A stretch of 6,783 nucleotides of DNA from a virus (Duplodnaviria; Heunggongvirae; Uroviricota; Caudoviricetes). The stretch is from IMG/VR virus record IMGVR_UViG_2713897055_000013; one strand, written 5' to 3'. Each line of letters starts with the position of its first letter. The stretch's first letter is position 1. A model generated the notes under the pieces. It saw nothing but the letters and a program-made list of their open reading frames with translations. It was not told the DNA's origin and ran no database searches. The translations under genes and the position numbers were made by a program. This document shows, in pieces, positions 1-6,783 of this stretch.

Positions 1-201
1 TTTCAGAGCGTTATAGATAGCCAGCCCTTCAAAGATGTCGCCACCAGGTGAATGAATGCTCAGATGGATTTCAGACACATTACCGCACGCGTTGATCTCG
101 TCAGTAAGTGCCGATGCCTTTACACCGTACCCGCCGATCTCGTCATAAATGCGCACATGTACAACATCTGCCATAGCCTTAATGGAAAACCATGTTTTCA
201 T
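1..201 (-). CDS. ClpP/SppA-clan serine protease, probable prohead/head-maturation protease; N-terminal 67 codons only, gene continues past the window start
   Basis: Minus-strand ATG at 199-201 with AGGAG (plus 209-213) 7 nt upstream; frame open to position 1. My translation: MKTWFSIKAMADVVHVRIYDEIGGYGVKASALTDEINACGNVSEIHLSIHSPGGDIFEGLAIYNALK. The I-x-SPGG-x5-G-x-AIY block is the conserved segment of ClpP-fold (S14/S49) proteases. The catalytic Ser lies outside the window. Confidence 0.7.
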   Translation of the reverse strand, partial: MKTWFSIKAMADVVHVRIYDEIGGYGVKASALTDEINACGNVSEIHLSIHSPGGDIFEGLAIYNALK

Positions 202-392
202 AGCCAGGCTCCTAACGTTGCCCTGTACCAGTATTCAACCGCGCTGCGTGTGATTTGTCCTTTCGTGGGCACTGGCATACCCGGGTGATTATCTTTGATG
301 AACTGCTGATAGCGTTCGATCTTCTCCATAGTTCCGGCGTCTATGTGTACCGTGGCACTTTTATCCGGCTTTCTGGTGTTGTTCTCTGGCAT
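198..392 (-). CDS. Hypothetical small protein (64 aa from ATG 390-392; tracked ORF extends to 425), translationally coupled to the protease
   Basis: GGAGG (plus 400-404) 7 nt upstream of ATG 390-392, whereas the upstream ATGs at 425/422 have no SD. Stop TGA overlaps the protease ATG (ATGA at 198-201). Product MPENNTRKPDKSATVHIDAGTMEKIERYQQFIK...; a beta-strand then helix pattern hints at a ribbon-helix-helix fold, unverified. Confidence 0.5.
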   Translation of the reverse strand: MPENNTRKPDKSATVHIDAGTMEKIERYQQFIKDNHPGMPVPTKGQITRSAVEYWYRATLGAWL

Positions 393-587
393 AAATCCGC
401 CTCCGTTTTGATTAACGGGCATCATTATTGATCGATAAAAGTAATAGATAAATCATTTTCTACCATAAAATCAGATTATGTTTTTTCTGATTATTCTCAG
501 AAAGGCAAAGTTATTGACGCATTTTTGCCATTGAAGCAGTATTAAGACTCGTCATCCTGGCGATAAAAACTCCTTTGTCGTGTAAAA

Positions 588-624
588 GCGCCTCCGGTAA
601 CAGCAATCGGGGGCGCTTTTTTTT
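588..624 (+). terminator. Intrinsic terminator-like hairpin followed by T8 (weaker in the minus orientation)
   Basis: GCGCCTCCG (588-596) pairs with CGGGGGCGC (608-616) with one G-U, loop about 11 nt, then T8 at 617-624; a second GCGCC plus T7 follows at 625-638. An A4 run upstream gives a weaker minus-strand reading. Confidence 0.5.
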
Positions 625-821
625 GCGCCTGTTTTTTTGTAAATGCTTTCGGGAACGCTCCAGTGATGAACAAAAAACAACCTGATTCGACACTAAAAAT
701 TTTTATTCTTCAATATATCAATAACTTATAGTGGTGGTGATGGTGCCATAAAAATCAAAAAATGCGCCTTTTTCCGCGCCCCTCCGCCCCGTGGACAGGC
801 CCCCCCCACCAGGAGTACCTA

Positions 822-845
822 CAAAAAAGCCGGATTGCTCCGGCT
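822..845 (-). terminator. Intrinsic terminator downstream of the PerC-like gene
   Basis: AGCCGGA (828-834), loop TTGC, TCCGGCT (839-845); on the minus strand the hairpin is followed by T6 (plus A-run 823-828). It sits 7 nt past the stop at 852-854. Confidence 0.5.
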
Positions 846-851
846 GTGTGA

Positions 852-1124
852 TTAGCTGTCTTGGTAATTACACCATATTTCATCGCTTACACCATCTATA
901 CCCATTTCAGCATAAGTGCGATCTACTGCCTTTCTCAGGTCTCCGAAGTTATCCGGCGGCTCCGGTGGCCTCTGTGCCTTCCTGGAACATTCCAGCCGTC
1001 GCATCGTAACCTGATGCCGTTCCTTGTCTGTCTCCACCAGCTGCATGACTTCACCCCATCGCGCCGCCGCCCTCCGGTAAAATCCTTTCGCCTCGAGTTC
1101 CTCCGCTATGCGGTCATGTATCAT
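852..1124 (-). CDS. PerC-family transcriptional regulator (Pch-like), 90 aa
   Basis: ATG 1122-1124 with GGAGAG SD 7 nt upstream. N-terminus MIHDRIAEELEAKGFYRRAAARWGEVM matches the A-x-x-LE-x-x-G-x-x-RRAA-x-RW signature I recall for PerC/Pch activators. Assignment is from memory of the family, not a search. Confidence 0.55.
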   Translation of the reverse strand: MIHDRIAEELEAKGFYRRAAARWGEVMQLVETDKERHQVTMRRLECSRKAQRPPEPPDNFGDLRKAVDRTYAEMGIDGVSDEIWCNYQDS

Positions 1125-1389
1125 CGCCTGACTCTCCGGTTTTTACGTTGATGGTTGTTACCTGTTCCGCTTCGGCAATCTCCCGTTCTGTCAACGTGGC
1201 AAAGTTTGCCGTCGCTGTGGTCATGAATGCGCTTATCAGTTCGGGATGCTCCTTCGCGTATCCTTCCCCCGCGTGGCGGTCTATTACCCTGATTGCCACC
1301 TTTAAGGCGTGCTCTGTCATGTCTAACGCTTTATATTTCGGCTCTGTTCTGTCTCTGCGCATTTTGGTTATCTCCTCACTCATGCTCAC
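1114..1389 (-). CDS. Hypothetical protein, 91 aa (GTG start at 1387-1389; in-frame ATG at 1381-1383)
   Basis: GAGGTG SD 5 nt upstream of the GTG; overlaps the PerC-like start by 11 nt; same strand as the operon. No family recognised. Confidence 0.45.
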   Translation of the reverse strand: MSMSEEITKMRRDRTEPKYKALDMTEHALKVAIRVIDRHAGEGYAKEHPELISAFMTTATANFATLTEREIAEAEQVTTINVKTGESGDDT

Positions 1390-1576
1390 TTTTACACCTC
1401 ACTTTTTAAAGCGTCTCGCTTCGTCTCACTTGATATTTTTTGATGCTTTATGTGTGTGTTTCATAAGGATTTTTTTTACTCCTCACTTTTGAGCATGTAT
1501 ACAGGTGAGAAAGTGAGTAATCGTGTTAATATTTTGTAAAAACCTCACCATTACTCACTTTTTCTACTCACTTTTT
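1385..1576. repeat. Iteron-like array of CTCAC(T)n repeats flanking an AT-rich core; putative island replication origin
   Basis: CTCACTTTT-type copies at 1385-1393, 1398-1407, 1425-1431, 1482-1490, 1544-1548, 1554-1563 and 1567-1576, plus two inverted GTGAG copies at 1505-1509 and 1513-1517. AT-rich, T-run-rich spacer at about 1430-1480. The array starts at the stop of the 469-aa ATPase gene. Confidence 0.55.
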
Positions 1577-2984
1577 ACAGTGGTCCTACATCATCACCAT
1601 CAATGTAAATCACGGCGTCTTTTTCCAGTTTGGCTAACCATCGCCGCATATTTTTCACGTCATACCCAAGCCGTTTCATGTCATCACGTAACAGCGGGAT
1701 CGTGCACTTGTCGCCGTTCTGTGTGCGTGAACGGATGCACCCCCATAGTGCGGTATGGTTTTCCGTCTTGTTGCCTGCCTCCTCGATGCGTTCCAGTTCA
1801 ACGGGAGGGCGCGGCTTATCCACCACCACCAGCGACGTGATTAACTCCCCGTCAGCGTCGGTAAACAACTCCACCACGCGTAAGTCATATGCGGCTTCTT
1901 TGAGTTCCTCCGCGTCCTTCATTTTGGTGCATGAGATAACCAGCGCTTCGCTTCCTGCGTCCTCCCTGCGTATCCGGTATTCAGCATCCAGTGATGCACG
2001 AAATGCACTGGAACCGCGCGCGCCTTTCGTCTCATCCTTGCCGGAATGGTGAACCACCAGCACCGTGGCCCCTGTGCGTCGTTTCAGTTCGTCACAACCA
2101 CGGATAAACGCCCCCATATCACGGGAATCATTTTCATCATTCCCACCAAAGCAACGCGCCAGCGTATCCAGAATAATCATGCGTACAGGTTTACCCGTTT
2201 CCCGCTCCACCTGACGGGCAGCGATAACCATTTCATCAACATCAAGCGGGACCGCCGGAAAGATGGGACGGTTTACCAGATACAGATTTTTCACCTGCTC
2301 ACCGTGCACAACCTCCCAGGCTTTTACACGACGCGGAACGCCGATACCGCCTTCACCAACCACATAGAGAACAGCGCCATGCGCCACCCTGCGGCCTCCC
2401 CACTGGCGGCCCGTGGAAACGTGACACGCCCACGATCCGGCAAGGAATGATTTATAGGAACCGCTCGCCCCGTATATGCTGCAAAGCGACGATGCCGGAA
2501 TAATCCCCTTTACCACGTAATCAAGCTGTGTGTCGTATCCGGTAGATCCAACGCTCATCGGTAGCGTGGTTTTTCGCTGGGGGATTTTTTTCATGACCAG
2601 GCTTTCCCCGCGTTCCCATGCCTCCCTAAGCCGTGGAAGCTGGTCGCTCCATTCCTCCAGCAATTCGAAATTTTCAGAAAGTAGCCGCGCCTCCTGGACT
2701 CCGGCGATCGCCAGTTTCGTGGCGATGGTTAACAGCTGCGGCTCTTCAATATTTCCGGCGCGTATCACCGTCGCCCTGTATCGCCCATCATCAACAATCT
2801 GGAGGTTATCCAGTTCGCTTAACTGATAACGCCCCAGATAAACGGGAGGGACTGGATCGCCTGCTTTTTTGGCCTGTGCAATGATGTAATGCTCTGCGAA
2901 TGAGTGAGCATCAATACCCGCAAAAATAATCGCATCGGTGTATTTGTCTTGCGGTAATCGTTTTACGTTCGGTGCCAGTTTCAT
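1575..2984 (-). CDS. RecA-fold P-loop ATPase of the AAA_25 / RepA-DnaB-like type, 469 aa; putative island replication initiator/helicase
   Basis: Long ORF with GGGGT SD 6 nt upstream of the ATG. P-loop-like IYGASGSYKSF (aa 172-179), Walker B-like VRMIILDTL, then VLVVHHSGKD and GSSAFRASLDAEYRI blocks typical of RepA-like RecA-fold ATPases. About 100 aa of C-terminal extension could be a DNA-binding domain. Followed directly by the iteron array. Confidence 0.85.
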   Translation of the reverse strand: MKLAPNVKRLPQDKYTDAIIFAGIDAHSFAEHYIIAQAKKAGDPVPPVYLGRYQLSELDNLQIVDDGRYRATVIRAGNIEEPQLLTIATKLAIAGVQEARLLSENFELLEEWSDQLPRLREAWERGESLVMKKIPQRKTTLPMSVGSTGYDTQLDYVVKGIIPASSLCSIYGASGSYKSFLAGSWACHVSTGRQWGGRRVAHGAVLYVVGEGGIGVPRRVKAWEVVHGEQVKNLYLVNRPIFPAVPLDVDEMVIAARQVERETGKPVRMIILDTLARCFGGNDENDSRDMGAFIRGCDELKRRTGATVLVVHHSGKDETKGARGSSAFRASLDAEYRIRREDAGSEALVISCTKMKDAEELKEAAYDLRVVELFTDADGELITSLVVVDKPRPPVELERIEEAGNKTENHTALWGCIRSRTQNGDKCTIPLLRDDMKRLGYDVKNMRRWLAKLEKDAVIYIDGDDVGPL

Positions 2985-3280
2985 TTTTTACCCCTGAATA
3001 CGTTAAGCATCTTTTTTATTTCCTGAATATTGGCGCGTGCTTTCTCCCTGCTGGTTGGTTTACTGCGGGGCGCTGCCTGTACCAGAGAAAAATCACGATC
3101 GAACTGATAAACAGGCATAACGCAATCATATTCGTAGCCTTCACGGCGGTAAGTGATGCGCCGTTCCTCCACGCCTTTAATCGTTACCGTGCCGCCGTAC
3201 TGGTCGCGGTAAATATCACCGCGCGTAAATTTAGGGTGAGTGTTGCCACTGGCAGTTAAGCCAGAATATTTAAGTTTCAT
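2981..3280 (-). CDS. Hypothetical protein, 99 aa, translationally coupled to the ATPase gene
   Basis: Stop TGA overlaps the ATPase ATG (ATGA at 2981-2984); GGAG about 9-10 nt upstream of ATG 3278-3280. No family recognised. Confidence 0.6.
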   Translation of the reverse strand: MKLKYSGLTASGNTHPKFTRGDIYRDQYGGTVTIKGVEERRITYRREGYEYDCVMPVYQFDRDFSLVQAAPRSKPTSREKARANIQEIKKMLNVFRGKK

Positions 3281-3285
3281 TATTT

Positions 3286-3516
3286 TTATTCTCCGGTGTG
3301 GGGCGAGTTATTATTCTCGTGAATTGCCATTGCCTTATCCAGTTCATCAATAACAGGCGATAGTAATGTCTGAATGGCTGCAAACATTAATACACCTGAT
3401 TCTTCACCACCTTCCGGCACTTCAATTAATTTAATTAACAACGCATTCATTTCGCGTGCTTTAATTAATGCGTTTTCAGAGTGGATTAATACTTCAAAAG
3501 GGATTTTATGCATCAC
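3286..3516 (-). CDS. Hypothetical small protein, about 75 aa, in the AT-rich cassette (start GTG 3514-3516 or ATG 3511-3513)
   Basis: AGGGAG (plus 3524-3529) 7 nt upstream of the GTG; start overlaps the stop of the upstream ORF (GTGATGCATAA). Lies in a strongly AT-rich stretch. Confidence 0.5.
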   Translation of the reverse strand: MMHKIPFEVLIHSENALIKAREMNALLIKLIEVPEGGEESGVLMFAAIQTLLSPVIDELDKAMAIHENNNSPHTGE

Positions 3517-3736
3517 AAATTTTCTCCCTTATTCTTTTAATGTCCTCATTAAGGATGTCTGTAACTTTTATCAGCGAGTTTTTGGCAATTATTTTTATTG
3601 TTTTAAGTTTTCTTTTGTCGTGCTCCGACTGTGATTTTCTCTCCATGCTCTCCACCATGTGGGTAACATCAACGAGCGCACGTATCAGTATTTGCATTGC
3701 TTCTTCTGCTGCGTCTGGTGTGGTTTTATTGCACAT
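3506..3736 (-). CDS. Hypothetical small protein, 76 aa, in the AT-rich cassette
   Basis: Strong SD GGAGGGG (plus 3743-3749) 6 nt upstream of ATG 3734-3736. Charged, probably helical product MCNKTTPDAAEEAMQILIRALVDVTHMVESMERKSQ... Confidence 0.55.
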   Translation of the reverse strand: MCNKTTPDAAEEAMQILIRALVDVTHMVESMERKSQSEHDKRKLKTIKIIAKNSLIKVTDILNEDIKRIREKICDA

Positions 3737-3960
3737 GGTGTACCCCTCCGCATTTTTTTTTCGTTAGAAATAAGCGTTCTTCTTTCCTGTTCATCGCTCA
3801 GGAATACGCAGACCTCACCGCTAAGGCGTTTAAGTAAGCCGATGATTGCCCCTGATTCGCTGTCGGTCATCATGCCAGGGTAATCCTCTGCCAGTGCGCA
3901 AATAACTTCGATTTGGTGGGCGCGTTCTGCTGCCTGTTGTAGTGTGATTTCCTGGCTCAT
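3685..3960 (-). CDS. Hypothetical protein, 91 aa (MSQEITLQQAAERAHQIEV...); the track's 110-aa version starting at 4017 is less likely
   Basis: ATG 3958-3960 overlaps the stop of the upstream 64-aa ORF (ATGA) and is preceded by a G-rich SD. Its last 22 codons run through an A9 tract and overlap the next gene's SD and start. Confidence 0.5.
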   Translation of the reverse strand: MSQEITLQQAAERAHQIEVICALAEDYPGMMTDSESGAIIGLLKRLSGEVCVFLSDEQERRTLISNEKKMRRGTPCAIKPHQTQQKKQCKY

Positions 3961-4151
3961 AAGTCCACCCCCTGACGAATACGGGCGGCAAATACAGCGA
4001 CACAACCGGACGGGCAACGGCTACGCGCTTCGCGTTCCGTCCAGGCGGTTACGTGGATGATTTGAGATTCTCCGGCACTCAGTGCCAGAAAACGCCACAC
4101 AAAGGCCGTTTGTGTGTGTACAAGGTGTGGGGTATGATTTACGGCAACCAT
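3957..4151 (-). CDS. Hypothetical protein, 64 aa; first gene of the leftward operon
   Basis: Strong SD GAGGAG (plus 4157-4162) 5 nt upstream of ATG 4149-4151; stop coupled to the next gene (ATGA). No family recognised. Confidence 0.5.
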   Translation of the reverse strand: MVAVNHTPHLVHTQTAFVWRFLALSAGESQIIHVTAWTEREARSRCPSGCVAVFAARIRQGVDL

Positions 4152-4224
4152 AACGGCTCCTCGTTTACGTTGTTGGTTAGAAGCCCGTTGGTGTTCATAG
4201 CGCCAGCGGGCTTTGCTTTTGTGG

Positions 4225-4294
4225 TGTCATTGGTATACATTGTCACCGTAAGGCCATTATTATACTCGAGGTATACAATGTCAACCAATGACAA
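4225..4294. promoter_or_regulatory. Divergent control region with nested direct and inverted repeats (operator candidate) and overlapping promoter hexamers
   Basis: 14-bp direct repeats GGTATACATTGTCA (4232-4245) and GGTATACAATGTCA (4270-4283). 10-bp inverted pair TGTCATTGGT (4225-4234) and ACCAATGACA (4284-4293). On the minus strand a perfect TATAAT (plus 4259-4264) and TTGACA (plus 4279-4284), but only 14 bp apart. The second repeat overlaps the SD and ATG of the RHH gene. Confidence 0.45.
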
Positions 4295-4454
4295 CAAAAA
4301 GGAAAGGTTTTCCGTACAGCTTCGTCTTGATGCTGACTTATTCGAACGCTTAAGCATCGCCATGAAAGAAGATGGCGATGATAACCGCTCAGGATGGATA
4401 AAAAGGCTTTTGCGCCGTGAGTTGGATAAACGCGGCATAGAATCAAAAGAATAA
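4278..4454 (+). CDS. Ribbon-helix-helix (CopG/Arc/MetJ-like) DNA-binding protein, 58 aa; candidate island repressor
   Basis: ATG 4278 with GAGG SD (4268-4271) 6 nt upstream. Product MSTNDNKKERFSVQLRLDADLFERLSIAMKEDGDDNRSGWIKRLLRRELDKRGIESKE shows the strand-helix-helix pattern. Divergent from the main operon with repeats over its own start. Confidence 0.6.
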   Translation: MSTNDNKKERFSVQLRLDADLFERLSIAMKEDGDDNRSGWIKRLLRRELDKRGIESKE

Positions 4455-4511
4455 TTACTATCAGCGCCGTGGCGTGAGGAACTCCGGCGCATTGCTTTAC
4501 AGGTACACACA

Positions 4512-4715
4512 ATGACCAACAAAGAATCAACCAATACACCATCGCAAAAAACGAACAGAGAGCACGAAAATATGGCGCTCGAGCATGAATCAGAAAGATT
4601 CGCACCATGCGCTTTTGTCCTTGATGAGTTTCTAAAAAAATATTCACGTTCCGAACGGATGAAAATGGCAGCACAATACGGCCCCAACAAGCAAGATAAT
4701 TGCCCACCAGCCTGA
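4512..4715 (+). CDS. Hypothetical small ORF, 67 aa, downstream of the RHH gene (weak call)
   Basis: Same strand as the RHH gene and followed by a plus-strand terminator, but no convincing SD and a hydrophilic, low-complexity N-terminus. Confidence 0.3.
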   Translation: MTNKESTNTPSQKTNREHENMALEHESERFAPCAFVLDEFLKKYSRSERMKMAAQYGPNKQDNCPPA

Positions 4716-4785
4716 TCGCGGTTATCATGCCCGGGCTTATGATTGTTGACACATACGGCGCAGCGGGTTAATTGTTCAGAAAGGT

Positions 4786-4811
4786 GGCTCCATTTCGGGG
4801 CCGCTTTTTTT
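4786..4811 (+). terminator. Intrinsic terminator closing the plus-strand RHH module
   Basis: GGCTCC (4786-4791), loop ATTTC, GGGGCC (4797-4802) with one G-U pair, then GC and T7 (4805-4811). Confidence 0.5.
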
Positions 4812-4836
4812 ATGTTCATCATTTGCCCTATATATG

Positions 4837-5045
4837 TTAAGCGGTCGTTCCGCGCGCTTCTTGTTCGCGTTCTTTCATCCATGCGATTACGTCTTCCTCA
4901 TACCATCCGCGACGGCGCAAACCGACACGAAAACCCTGCGGGAATTCTCCGGCGTTGATCATGCTTTGCAGCGTGCTGTCTGCCTTAATGTGGATAAGTT
5001 TTTTTTACTTCCTGGCGAAAGATGACTTTTTTTGATTGCTTCCAT
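4837..5045 (-). pseudogene. AlpA/excisionase-family-like small regulator interrupted by a frameshift at an A8 run (pseudogene or frameshift-dependent gene)
   Basis: ATG 5043-5045 with GAGGT SD 8 nt upstream opens a frame (MEAIKKSHLSPGSKKN...) that stops at 4959-4961. The -1 frame continues from the A8 run (plus T8 4999-5006) as ...LIHIKADSTLQSMINAGEFPQGFRVGLRRRGWYEEDVIAWMKEREQEARGTTA to a stop at 4837-4839. That C-terminal segment resembles the AlpA/Xis recognition-helix and wing region. Confidence 0.45.
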
Positions 5046-5175
5046 CGTGATTTACCTCATTAATCCGGTGTATTCCGGTGAGAAATACGGTAAATCATCG
5101 GATGCAGGGAAAAACAGTACTCACCGTTTTTAAACGGTATACACAGTTTTTTATATTGATGATTTGAAAGGGATT

Positions 5176-5202
5176 TATAAAAAAAGCGGCATTTCTGCCG
5201 CT
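5176..5202 (-). terminator. Intrinsic terminator downstream of the integrase / small ORF unit
   Basis: Perfect 7-bp stem AGCGGCA (5185-5191) / TGCCGCT (5196-5202), loop TTTC; on the minus strand it is followed by T7 (plus A-run 5179-5185). Confidence 0.55.
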
Positions 5203-5212
5203 TTCAGGATTG

Positions 5213-5464
5213 TTACCGCCATTTTTTTGGCCTGCCTCCGGTCTTCATGGATGCCGGACGTACAACCTTATCAATACTTACAGCCAGATTTCTGGAAGCC
5301 CCACGGGATACCAGGAAATCTACTACCTGTTTTTTTGATGGGGCCGTCGTTCTGTCCTCCGGATCGTAGGTTGACCAAAATTCATGCTGAACCATCAGGG
5401 CCAGTTGCAGCCCGTCGCAATTGCATCTGAAATTTGTTTGCATCTTAACAGTTTCATTTTTCAA
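5213..5464 (-). CDS. Hypothetical small ORF between integrase and terminator (weak; TTG start in the track, in-frame ATG at 5441-5443)
   Basis: ORF ends just before the minus-strand terminator, but neither start has a convincing SD and no family is recognised. Confidence 0.3.
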   Translation of the reverse strand: MKNETVKMQTNFRCNCDGLQLALMVQHEFWSTYDPEDRTTAPSKKQVVDFLVSRGASRNLAVSIDKVVRPASMKTGGRPKKWR

Positions 5465-5541
5465 GGCCTCGTCGTTAAATGTGATGCAATTATACGACGG
5501 TTTTAAATGGTTTTCGTAGTTTTTACTGGTTTTCTGTACAG

Positions 5542-6783
5542 CTAAACGGCTCGGATACCCCTTTTACCACTGGCGAGGGTTACGCCCGTCGCCGCAGCCT
5601 CGACAAATTCGCCCCACCAGCGCATAAGCACGATGCGTTTTTCTATGTAGTTGCTCCGGTTGTATGCCCGTCTGACTTCGTTGGTGTCGACGTGGGCAAG
5701 TGCGGCCTCTATTACGTCCGGCTCAAAGCCTTCTTCGTTCGCTGCTGTGCTGAATATGGCGCGTAATCCATGAGACACCAGCACGCCAGCGAATCCCATG
5801 CGTCGTAATGCTGCGTTAGCGGTCTGGCTGTTCATCGGCTGCTGTGGGTCTTTCAGACTCGGGAAAACATAATCGCGGTGGTGGCTGATTGGTTTCATAG
5901 CCTCCAGCACTGCCATAGCCTGGTCACAAAGCGGGATAACGTGGTCGCGGCGCATCTTCATGCGTCCGGCGGGTATGGTCCAGCGTTGCGCTTCCATGTC
6001 GATTTCTTCCCAGCGTGCCGACGATGCTTCAACGGGACGGGTTACGGTCAGTAACTGCCATTCAATCAGTAATCTGGTCTGCCGTTCTGTTGCCGATACT
6101 GATAAAGCCTGCATAAGCTCCGGCAGCTGTTCGGGGCGGATTGTTGGCATATGTTTTTTTACAGGGGAGGGGAACGCCTTACGCACATTCATAGCCGGAT
6201 TGGCATCAATCATCCCACTATTGGCGGCGTAATCCATTACCTCATTTATACGCTGTAAAACTCGCTTGAGCGTTTCCAGGTTGCCACGTTCCTTGATGGG
6301 GGTAAGCACCTCAACGAACCTGCGAGCGGTCAGGGTGTCTATTGGCGTGTTGCCGATGAACGGGAATACATATTTTTCCAGCGATCGCCAGATGTCTTTA
6401 ATCGTATTGGGGGCCAGATTCTGGCTGATTTTCACCTGGTACCATGCTGTTGCCACATTTTCGAACGTGTTCCCTTGTCTTCGGGCCTCTGTCTCTCTTT
6501 TTTGCCTCTCGTGGTCCTGTGGGTCAGTTCCGGCACGAATTAACGCCCTGTACTCGCTACGGCGTTTTCTGGCATCAGCCAGGGAAACATCATCAAGCGA
6601 TCCAAAACTCAGCAATATTCTTTTTTTGTCCGATGGTCGGTAGTAGGAAAATCTCCAGAGTTTTGATCCGGACGGTTTGATCAGGAGAAAAAGCCCTCCG
6701 CCGTCCTGTAGGGTGTATTCCTTTTCTGCTGGTCTGGCTGCTTTGATCTGTACTGTGGTTAATGGGGGTGTTTTTCTCGCCAT
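5542..6783 (-). CDS. int: Tyrosine recombinase, P4-type integrase (N-terminal arm-binding domain plus C-terminal catalytic domain), 413 aa
   Basis: N-terminus MARKTPPLTTVQIKAARPAEKEYTLQDGGGLFLLIKPSGSKLWRFSYYRP matches the characteristic start of P4-family integrases. C-terminal HGLRAIFST (H-x-x-R) and a terminal RAYNRSNY block fit the catalytic region. ATG is 6781-6783, so upstream signals and the att site are outside the window. Confidence 0.9.
   Translation of the reverse strand: MARKTPPLTTVQIKAARPAEKEYTLQDGGGLFLLIKPSGSKLWRFSYYRPSDKKRILLSFGSLDDVSLADARKRRSEYRALIRAGTDPQDHERQKRETEARRQGNTFENVATAWYQVKISQNLAPNTIKDIWRSLEKYVFPFIGNTPIDTLTARRFVEVLTPIKERGNLETLKRVLQRINEVMDYAANSGMIDANPAMNVRKAFPSPVKKHMPTIRPEQLPELMQALSVSATERQTRLLIEWQLLTVTRPVEASSARWEEIDMEAQRWTIPAGRMKMRRDHVIPLCDQAMAVLEAMKPISHHRDYVFPSLKDPQQPMNSQTANAALRRMGFAGVLVSHGLRAIFSTAANEEGFEPDVIEAALAHVDTNEVRRAYNRSNYIEKRIVLMRWWGEFVEAAATGVTLASGKRGIRAV

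Follow-up and report, generated by a model that had tools for sequence, protein, structure and literature searches.

Two small, overlapping open reading frames of low G+C content, here called A and B, lie within the replication operon of a 6,783-nucleotide stretch of viral DNA (IMG/VR record IMGVR_UViG_2713897055_000013; the window throughout this text means that whole stretch). The question raised by this locus is whether the pair is foreign cargo, swapped into a variable slot of a satellite island and possibly directed against phages, as the initial annotation proposed, or part of the island's own machinery. The analysis below shows that the AT-rich pair belongs to a backbone module of the PICI, of which it is one ordinary allelic form, and that it is not defence cargo of foreign origin; it should therefore not be prioritised as a new defence system.

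A phage satellite and its early operon

The window is the left half of an Escherichia coli capsid-forming PICI (cf-PICI), a type of phage satellite. Its set of elements (integrase, AlpA, Icd-like, DUF4222, RepA, and PerC) supports this identity. Megablast searches of 5,426 complete E. coli genomes located related islands in 1,788 of them. In the best match, MDP9-27, the island sits between tRNA-Pro/yejM and a gene for a ClpP-like protease/capsid fusion; in E110019, the small genes share an island with genes for capsid, protease, portal, connectors, HNH, TerS, and TerL. The capsid/protease/portal/terminase module falls outside the window and was seen beside these genes in MDP9-27 and E110019. 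The same architecture is found in EcCIEDL933/CP-933C, a capsid-forming PICI (bioRxiv 10.1101/2022.09.08.507074). A tyrosine integrase was called as an open reading frame on the minus strand at 5542-6783, followed on the same strand by an AlpA-like gene at about 4837-5045. The C-terminus of the latter (4837-4962) matched Pfam at E 0.032, weaker than the cutoff; alpA is an intact gene of 68 aa in MDP9-27 and is broken in the window by two +1 A insertions in homopolymers, at about 5006 and 5033.

The early operon also runs on the minus strand. A sigma-70-like site upstream of the Icd-like gene, TTGACA-17-AATAAT (11 of 12 consensus positions; minus strand, 4256-4284), is the probable operon promoter. 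The order of genes from this site (~4284-4256) is Icd-like, MSQ, A, B, DUF4222/RgdR, and RepA helicase. The Icd-like gene opens the operon (minus strand, 3957-4151). The gene labelled MSQ (minus strand, 3685-3960; phrog_1478) is an optional module upstream of A; its tail is frameshifted in the window by a run of 9 A (3753-3761). This run is 8 A long in 18 of 20 relatives, whose product has 76-77 aa. Downstream of B, the gene of the DUF4222/RgdR family (minus strand, 2981-3280; Pfam E 6.6e-24) encodes a basic protein of 99 aa with a charge of +9.6, and its stop overlaps the start of the RepA-family helicase (AAA_25; minus strand, 1575-2984; E 1e-43), the island replicase. The N-terminal ~120-140 aa of RepA are 40-48% identical to primase-type replicases of sister islands. 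An iteron array, CTCACTTTT repeated six times, is located downstream of repA at 1385-1575. The minus strand of the window also carries a 91-aa open reading frame and a PerC-family gene.

The block that follows A and B is the RgdR-replicase module known from CP-933C/EcCIEDL933 and EcCICFT073, which belong to the same island family and have the same operon as the window. The DUF4222 gene of CP-933C/EcCIEDL933 is the regulator RgdR; of the genes in the block, only RgdR has been studied experimentally (PMC3378721). A and B lie directly upstream of the RgdR homologue in the window, and likewise in E110019 and MDP9-27; RgdR itself is a different, basic protein. Searches of the literature returned no functional data on the small genes upstream of RgdR. 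In EHEC, RgdR influences both type III secretion and motility, and PICI islands are widespread vehicles of gene transfer; the roles of B and A could thus clarify the control of PICI replication and of RgdR activity.

Two real genes under purifying selection

ORF A (allele A-i; minus strand, 3506-3736) starts with ATG and encodes 76 aa. ORF B (allele B-i; minus strand, 3286-3513) encodes 75 aa when read from its ATG at 3513, the start used here and in the RefSeq annotation; an alternative GTG at 3516 would give 76 codons (3516..3286). A GGAGG Shine-Dalgarno site for A lies at 3745-3749 on the minus strand with a spacer of 8 nt. The GGGAG site for B (minus strand, 3524-3528) is inside the 3' end of A, 7 nt from the GTG and 10 nt from the ATG. 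The end of A, with its stop codon TAA at 3508-3506, shares 8 nt with B if B is read from the ATG, or 11 nt if it is read from the GTG. The initial annotation had described two overlapping frames of about 76 codons (3506-3736 and 3286-3516), each with its own Shine-Dalgarno site, and this description is confirmed. The DUF4222 gene in turn has a GGAG site (minus strand, 3291-3294) within the codons for HTGE, the conserved C-terminus of B. A promoter scan of the A/B segment found no promoter-like site on the coding strand. Comparison with Rfam matched no structured RNA in the A/B region. The only Rfam signal in the window was a sub-threshold ctRNA at 584-626.

Both A and B are real genes under purifying selection. 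The median pairwise dN/dS was 0.21 for the window type of B (B-i), 0.34 for B-ii, and 0.35 for the window type of A (A-i), the last from only three informative pairs. Identical or near-identical proteins are annotated as hypothetical in many genomes of E. coli, Shigella, and E. albertii. The products had been thought to resemble no recognisable family; in fact, residues 1-70 of A align with positions 1-72 of the 74 in phrog_5146 (E 5.3e-8), and residues 1-68 of B align with positions 1-70 of the 74 in phrog_2196 (E 2e-8). The N-terminal 39 aa of A also match phrog_2512, a 154-aa profile corresponding to a fusion of A with a third small protein, C2 (A~C2). These profile matches are consistent with the fusions described below. 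None of the PHROG families has an assigned function, so membership gives A and B a name and explains nothing. Neither protein matched Pfam or NCBIfam, PADLOC returned no family at E ≤ 1 for A, B, MSQ, the Icd-like protein, DUF4222, or the 91-aa frame, and 50,697 phage genomes searched by tblastn contained no match to either protein. The island is of known type, the proteins are already catalogued as hypothetical proteins and as PHROG members, and nothing at the locus points to a new kind of system.

Allelic replacement between close relatives

MDP9-27, the closest relative, served as the reference for defining the replaced tract. Identity between the two is 98.1% over positions 1-3300 of the window and 98.8% over 3665-6783. 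Between these blocks, 364 bp of the window (3301-3664; 36.5% G+C) are without a counterpart in MDP9-27, which has instead a segment of 604 bp with 43.9% G+C that carries the same gene families plus one extra module. The tract has sharp borders, with identity dropping from 100% to about 44% at 3300 and regained by about 3700. Both borders lie within genes, at about codon 24 of A and about five codons before the stop of B, which identifies the exchanged unit as an allele of A and B. This unit is flanked by the conserved 5' end of A on one side and, on the other, by the conserved 3' end of B with the Shine-Dalgarno site of DUF4222. The idea of a swapped insert was right in that 3301-3664 has been replaced relative to MDP9-27; what replaced it is an allele of the same A and B families. 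At least 80% of the segment 3240-3800 of the window is present in 43 of the 5,426 complete E. coli genomes. The comparison with MDP9-27 also revealed a further mosaic patch, a small one, in the 3' half of the DUF4222 gene.

The allele of B varies independently of its neighbours. RepA is 100% identical between the window and MDP9-27, yet the window carries B-i and MDP9-27 carries B-ii; at another locus (L007), DUF4222 is 99% identical to that of the window, yet the B gene is again of type ii. This lack of linkage between the B allele and the DUF4222 or replicase allele counts against a tightly co-evolving interface among the three.

Base composition

The G+C content is 29.4% over 3421-3600, within the range of 28-32% obtained earlier by hand count, and 39.1% over 3286-3750. 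ORF A has 38.1% and ORF B 37.7%, as compared with 48.5% for the window, 53.7% for repA, and local maxima near 63%. The value of about 60% first given for the ATPase gene is therefore correct locally but too high for the gene as a whole. The segment is compositionally distinct and lies in a mosaic part of a satellite island, as had been reported.

Its low G+C content had been read as a sign of foreign origin, a reading that the alleles do not bear out. The B alleles of E. coli, types i to iv, are all AT-rich (38-40% G+C), and consequently low G+C is no sign of a recent foreign insertion. A-i is also AT-rich (38%), as opposed to 48-51% for A-ii to A-iv, whereas the B genes of Pectobacterium (51%) and Salmonella (45%) are not. 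Judged from these alleles, both the B gene of E. coli and the A-i allele have long had a low G+C content.

An AT-rich tract might also act mainly in cis, as an origin or as a site of H-NS silencing, with the reading frames incidental. The 29% G+C over 180 bp and the TTAATTAA palindromes at 3421-3434 and 3458-3471 are compatible with such a function. However, dN/dS values of 0.2-0.35 and the retention of reading frames across alleles indicate selection at the level of the protein, and the Pectobacterium and Salmonella homologues of B do without the AT-richness, leaving a mainly cis-acting role very improbable. Apart from the palindromes, no origin or iterons were located in the tract, the iteron array being at 1385-1575. 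A secondary effect of H-NS binding to the AT-rich tract may exist.

Conserved gene order and the place of B

The slot was surveyed in 80 IMG/VR loci seeded on the DUF4222 protein and in E. coli genome loci, and the genes between Icd-like and DUF4222 were extracted from 81 loci. These samples are mostly E. coli contigs from IMG/VR and are phylogenetically non-independent, and the ORF starts in the relatives were set by a simple rule. Gene order was collinear across the 81 loci: Icd-like, then optionally C6, C7, or C8, optionally MSQ, A, optionally C5, optionally C2, B, DUF4222/RgdR, and replicase. The slot holds the same few families throughout, and its variation is allelic or consists in the presence or absence of MSQ, C5, and C2. 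Comparison of related islands thus contradicts the earlier picture of a variable slot exchanging unrelated cargo.

B was present in 78 of the 81 DUF4222-seeded loci, every time immediately upstream of DUF4222, and this adjacency was kept whether the replicase was a RepA helicase, a DUF927 protein, or a D5-type primase. In the reverse direction, a search seeded on B found DUF4222 beginning at a constant 9 nt past the B match in 20 of 20 loci. (In the window, the B stop is at 3286, the DUF4222 start at 3280, and the RepA start at 2984.) The B proteins comprise at least four allelic types with only 15-31% identity between types; common to them are a hydrophobic pattern (HSENAL..., LL.PVI.EL) and the C-terminal HTGE, whose codons contain the Shine-Dalgarno site of the next gene. 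A was found in about 61 of the 81 loci, free in 47, fused to C2 in 13, and fused to MSQ in one. Its N-terminal ~25 aa (MCNKTTPDAAEEA..L..AL.D) are conserved across the family, and its C-terminal two thirds are allele-specific.

The association extends beyond E. coli. When 1.84 billion representative proteins were searched exhaustively by HMMER with a combined A~B profile, only 65 clusters were returned, with members in E. coli, Salmonella, Citrobacter, Enterobacter, Yersinia, and Pectobacterium; the profile was a concatenation of A and B, and it returned mostly A~C2 fusions and under-sampled free B alleles. A Salmonella locus has a B homologue about 28% identical to that of the window, followed by an extra open reading frame, DUF4222, and a D5-type primase. 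In Pectobacterium, B precedes DUF4222 and a D5-type primase in six of eight loci, with the primase directly after DUF4222 in five of them and one extra frame between the two in the sixth (L113); in the other two loci, B-like genes were present and DUF4222 was not detected. Three distant B proteins used as single queries against IMG/VR gave no match. The counts of 78 of 81 and 20 of 20 loci, together with the synteny in Salmonella and Pectobacterium, place B with the backbone and not with the cargo. On this comparative evidence, B is a conserved backbone gene of the island and A a semi-conserved accessory module. The fixed position of B next to RgdR/DUF4222 and the replicase, in satellites across Enterobacterales, is a new observation.

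These data bear directly on whether A and B are swapped cargo that interferes with helper or competing phages. The replaced tract, with its sharp borders and atypical G+C content, is what such cargo might leave behind, and alleles of A and B so deeply diverged at a fixed site recall genes engaged in an arms race; satellites are also known to carry defence genes (bioRxiv 10.1101/2025.02.11.637232). But a gene that is near-universal and syntenic with DUF4222 and the replicase across Enterobacterales is unlike accessory cargo, the alternatives found in the slot are homologues and not unrelated systems, and the cf-PICI literature places presumed immune hotspots at the flanks of the packaging operon, not in the A/B slot. 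Nor did PADLOC, Pfam, or NCBIfam yield a match for either protein, and hairpins of 75 aa without an enzymatic or sensor domain do not suggest a defence system. We regard an interference or anti-phage role as quite improbable.

Pairing, recombination, and fusion of A and B

The two genes had been called tightly paired, and for one direction this is accurate: A-i was found only alongside B-i (14 of 14). B-i, on the other hand, occurred without A in 13 of its 28 loci and once with A-iii, so the A/B pair is not obligate. B types ii-iv have other upstream partners; C2, for example, precedes B-ii in 42 of 44 cases. Furthermore, A-i proteins are 97-99% identical while the adjacent B-i proteins span 72-100%, a difference indicating that recombination separates A from B.

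The genes are also joined in nature. Single-chain A~B fusions (P0120-P0126) take the place immediately before DUF4222, and fusions of A to C2 are abundant. At the A/C2 junction, the length of a G-run toggles between the fused state, ENGG(G)VMRDD, and the split state, ENGGGYA* plus MGGVMRDD. By the Rosetta-stone argument, such fusions suggest that A and the hairpin protein encoded next in the operon are physical partners. The behaviour of A, C2, and B as modules that are shuffled and sometimes fused is a second new observation.

Two small overlapping genes, one product basic (A, pI 8.6) and the other acidic (B, pI 4.9), might suggest that the island is stabilised by an addiction module or type II toxin-antitoxin pair. 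Non-obligate pairing, with B-i lacking A in 13 of 28 loci, largely refutes this explanation. Other B types pair with different upstream genes, Pfam, NCBIfam, and PADLOC found no toxin or antitoxin domain, the genes sit within a long operon and have no promoter of their own, and A and B occur as single fused polypeptides. An addiction function is barely credible.

Predicted structure

An AlphaFold2 model of B, built from an 18-sequence alignment, is a two-helix hairpin (residues 6-30 and 36-68; pLDDT 80.4, pTM 0.64) with a tail that is predicted to be disordered and ends in HTGE. A is predicted to be a helix-loop-helix protein. The model of the natural fusion P0120 has four helices, two in each half, and with a pLDDT of 69.9 and a pTM of 0.47 the packing of the two hairpins against each other is only tentative. 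Taking fusions, allele linkage, and predicted folds together, A most likely docks onto B to form something like a four-helix bundle. Conservation within B is confined to core hydrophobic positions, which indicates the lack of a catalytic motif and points to a binding or adaptor role.

Foldseek comparisons of the B model with PDB and BFVD, and of the A~B fusion model with PDB, gave no match at E ≤ 0.001, and profile and HMM searches of PDB sequences gave only noise (E > 0.1). The Foldseek listings contained generic hairpins and bundles only. ROP/Rom-type hairpins dimerise into four-helix bundles. B, as modelled, would resemble ROP/Rom in being an antiparallel two-helix hairpin of similar size, and a single-chain ROP variant was among the non-significant Foldseek matches to the A~B fusion model (E 0.79); however, no structural or sequence match to A or B was significant, all having E > 0.1. 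MSQ, A, C2, and B are all helix-loop-helix proteins of about 76 aa; tandem paralogy among them was considered and rejected, with no similarity in BLASTP or hhalign (probabilities <1%).

Proposed role in the replication module

Our preferred reading, to which we give somewhat less than an even chance, is that A and B are all-helical adaptor proteins of the RgdR-replicase module in the cf-PICI early operon. After induction of the island, the operon would yield B together with RgdR and the replicase. Translation of B is probably coupled to that of DUF4222/RgdR and the replicase, on the evidence of the Shine-Dalgarno sites, the overlaps of 8-11 nt, and the lack of an internal promoter on the coding strand. 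Either by itself or with A as a cap (A-i in this allele), B would then act on the RgdR-replicase step as an adaptor or modulator without enzymatic activity, and may control DNA binding by RgdR, or the loading or activity of the replicase. The charges of the proteins are complementary, with -7 for B and +9.6 for DUF4222. The 364-bp tract is one of several interchangeable A/B alleles, exchanged by recombination at the conserved 5' end of A and 3' end of B. Contact between A and B and between B and RgdR or the replicase, as well as the role in replication or regulation, is what we infer from gene order, fusions, and models.

The deep divergence of B types at a fixed site (15-31% identity) would also fit selection exerted from outside the island, by a phage or host partner. 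A and B could thus be takeover or specificity factors directed at the host or helper, with alleles diversified by that partner; for instance, they might inhibit a protein of host defence or host replication, or decide which helper or host is available to the island. Their site in the early operon, beside an Icd-like host cell-division inhibitor, would suit such factors. Small, acidic, helical proteins are typical of protein-binding inhibitors, the B alleles are unlinked to neighbouring island alleles, and the types are highly divergent while dN/dS within each type is below 1. This view would not explain, however, why the genes are so strictly tied in position to DUF4222 and the replicase, and A and B have no similarity to catalogued anti-defence or inhibitor families in Pfam, PHROGs, PDB, or BFVD. 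We consider this explanation unlikely.

The adaptor role and external selection could be combined if the A, C2, and B hairpins were interchangeable specificity cassettes that set which helper or host is able to trigger or support replication of the island. The conserved face of B would dock onto the RgdR-replicase machinery; recognition of a variable external partner, for example a protein of the helper phage or host, would fall to the allele-specific face of B and its cognate cap (A-i or C2). This is a rather speculative proposal and more probably wrong than right by a wide margin; if true, it would reveal a layer of helper specificity previously unrecognised in Gram-negative PICIs.

Parts of this arrangement have parallels in other mobile elements. 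In satellite P4, small accessory genes (epsilon, orf151, and cnr) lie upstream of the alpha gene, which encodes a primase-helicase, and Cnr modulates the replicase. The analogy would be one of layout, a run of small, translationally coupled genes ahead of the replicase in a satellite early operon; P4 proteins were absent from the tblastn results of A and B against phage genomes. The early regions of lambdoid phages belong to another type of element and encode other proteins, but they share with this locus a collinear gene order and alternative alleles exchanged at short conserved junctions.

Replication genes and the region downstream of repA

The N-terminal 120-140 aa or so of the window RepA (residues 1-140, window 2565-2984) form a domain that recurs, at 40-48% identity, in replicases of different classes. 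Across the window RepA and the related loci L003-L088, this homologous domain was found at the N-terminus of AAA_25 RepA helicases, DUF927 replicases and D5-type primases. Nothing in Pfam matches this N-terminal region, which is a candidate for a shared docking or origin-recognition domain of the module formed by ORF B, the second of the two small helical-protein genes, and DUF4222.

Immediately 3' of the repA stop lies an AT-rich tract (approximately 31% G+C) containing six copies of CTCACTTTT at window 1385-1575, five direct and one inverted. When up to one mismatch was allowed, the window held 7 matches against 1.8 expected, a count reached by none of 200 shuffles. A longer 17-nt unit recurs within the same region at a period of approximately 84 bp. 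The repeat region is probably the replication origin of the island.

The DUF4222 gene itself is mosaic. When compared with the closest island, that of E. coli MDP9-27, its 3' half (window 2990-3200) constitutes a second mosaic patch, where identity falls to 64-94% per 50-nt bin between flanks that are otherwise 100% identical; as a result, the RgdR-like proteins of the two islands, which have identical RepA proteins, are 81% identical. The synteny of B and DUF4222 has an exception in two Pectobacterium loci, L119 and L120, which carry a tandem pair of B-like genes (3599-3736 and 4001-4207) with no DUF4222 detected 3' of them.

Frameshifts and gene fusion

The poly-A run at window 3753-3761, within the upstream gene MSQ, has 9 A; 18 of 20 relatives have 8. 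The MSQ tail is consequently read in a shifted frame, giving a 91-aa product that overlaps ORF A by 52 nt, rather than one of 76-77 aa with the C-terminus ...NEKKCGGVH(H)VQ. Relative to MDP9-27, alpA (4837-5045) carries two +1 A insertions in homopolymers, at approximately 5006 and 5033, which break the 68-aa AlpA frame and leave only a 41-aa C-terminal ORF. That all three +1 changes fall in A-runs suggests that the assembly from which the window was taken contains sequencing errors at homopolymers, rather than that the genes are decaying into pseudogenes.

In related loci (for example, L001 11055-11519 and L047 3305-3769) and proteins P0138-P0217, ORF A meets C2, the optional module that follows it, at a G-run whose length determines whether the two are fused into a single gene or remain separate, overlapping genes. 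All three frames occur among relatives: ENGGVMRDD, ENGGGYA-stop and ENGGGLCVMIVLIP-stop. This G-run may be slippage-prone or phase-variable.

Other repeats and hairpins

The 10-bp unit CACCGGAATA, which may be a regulator-binding repeat, lies 5' of alpA (window ~5061-5080) in two copies, with three in MDP9-27. In the leader that separates the operon promoter (4284-4256) from the start of the Icd-like gene is a hairpin with a 16-bp stem (4180-4214), without an Rfam family match. Read on the plus strand, this hairpin has a terminator score, with nothing obvious upstream of it. Window 584-626 gave a sub-threshold match to Rfam ctRNA_p42d (E 0.074), scoring 24.3 bits where the gathering cutoff is 50. 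That match overlies a GC-rich inverted repeat (arms 584-596 and 608-620), terminator-like and situated in the AT-rich region past perC.
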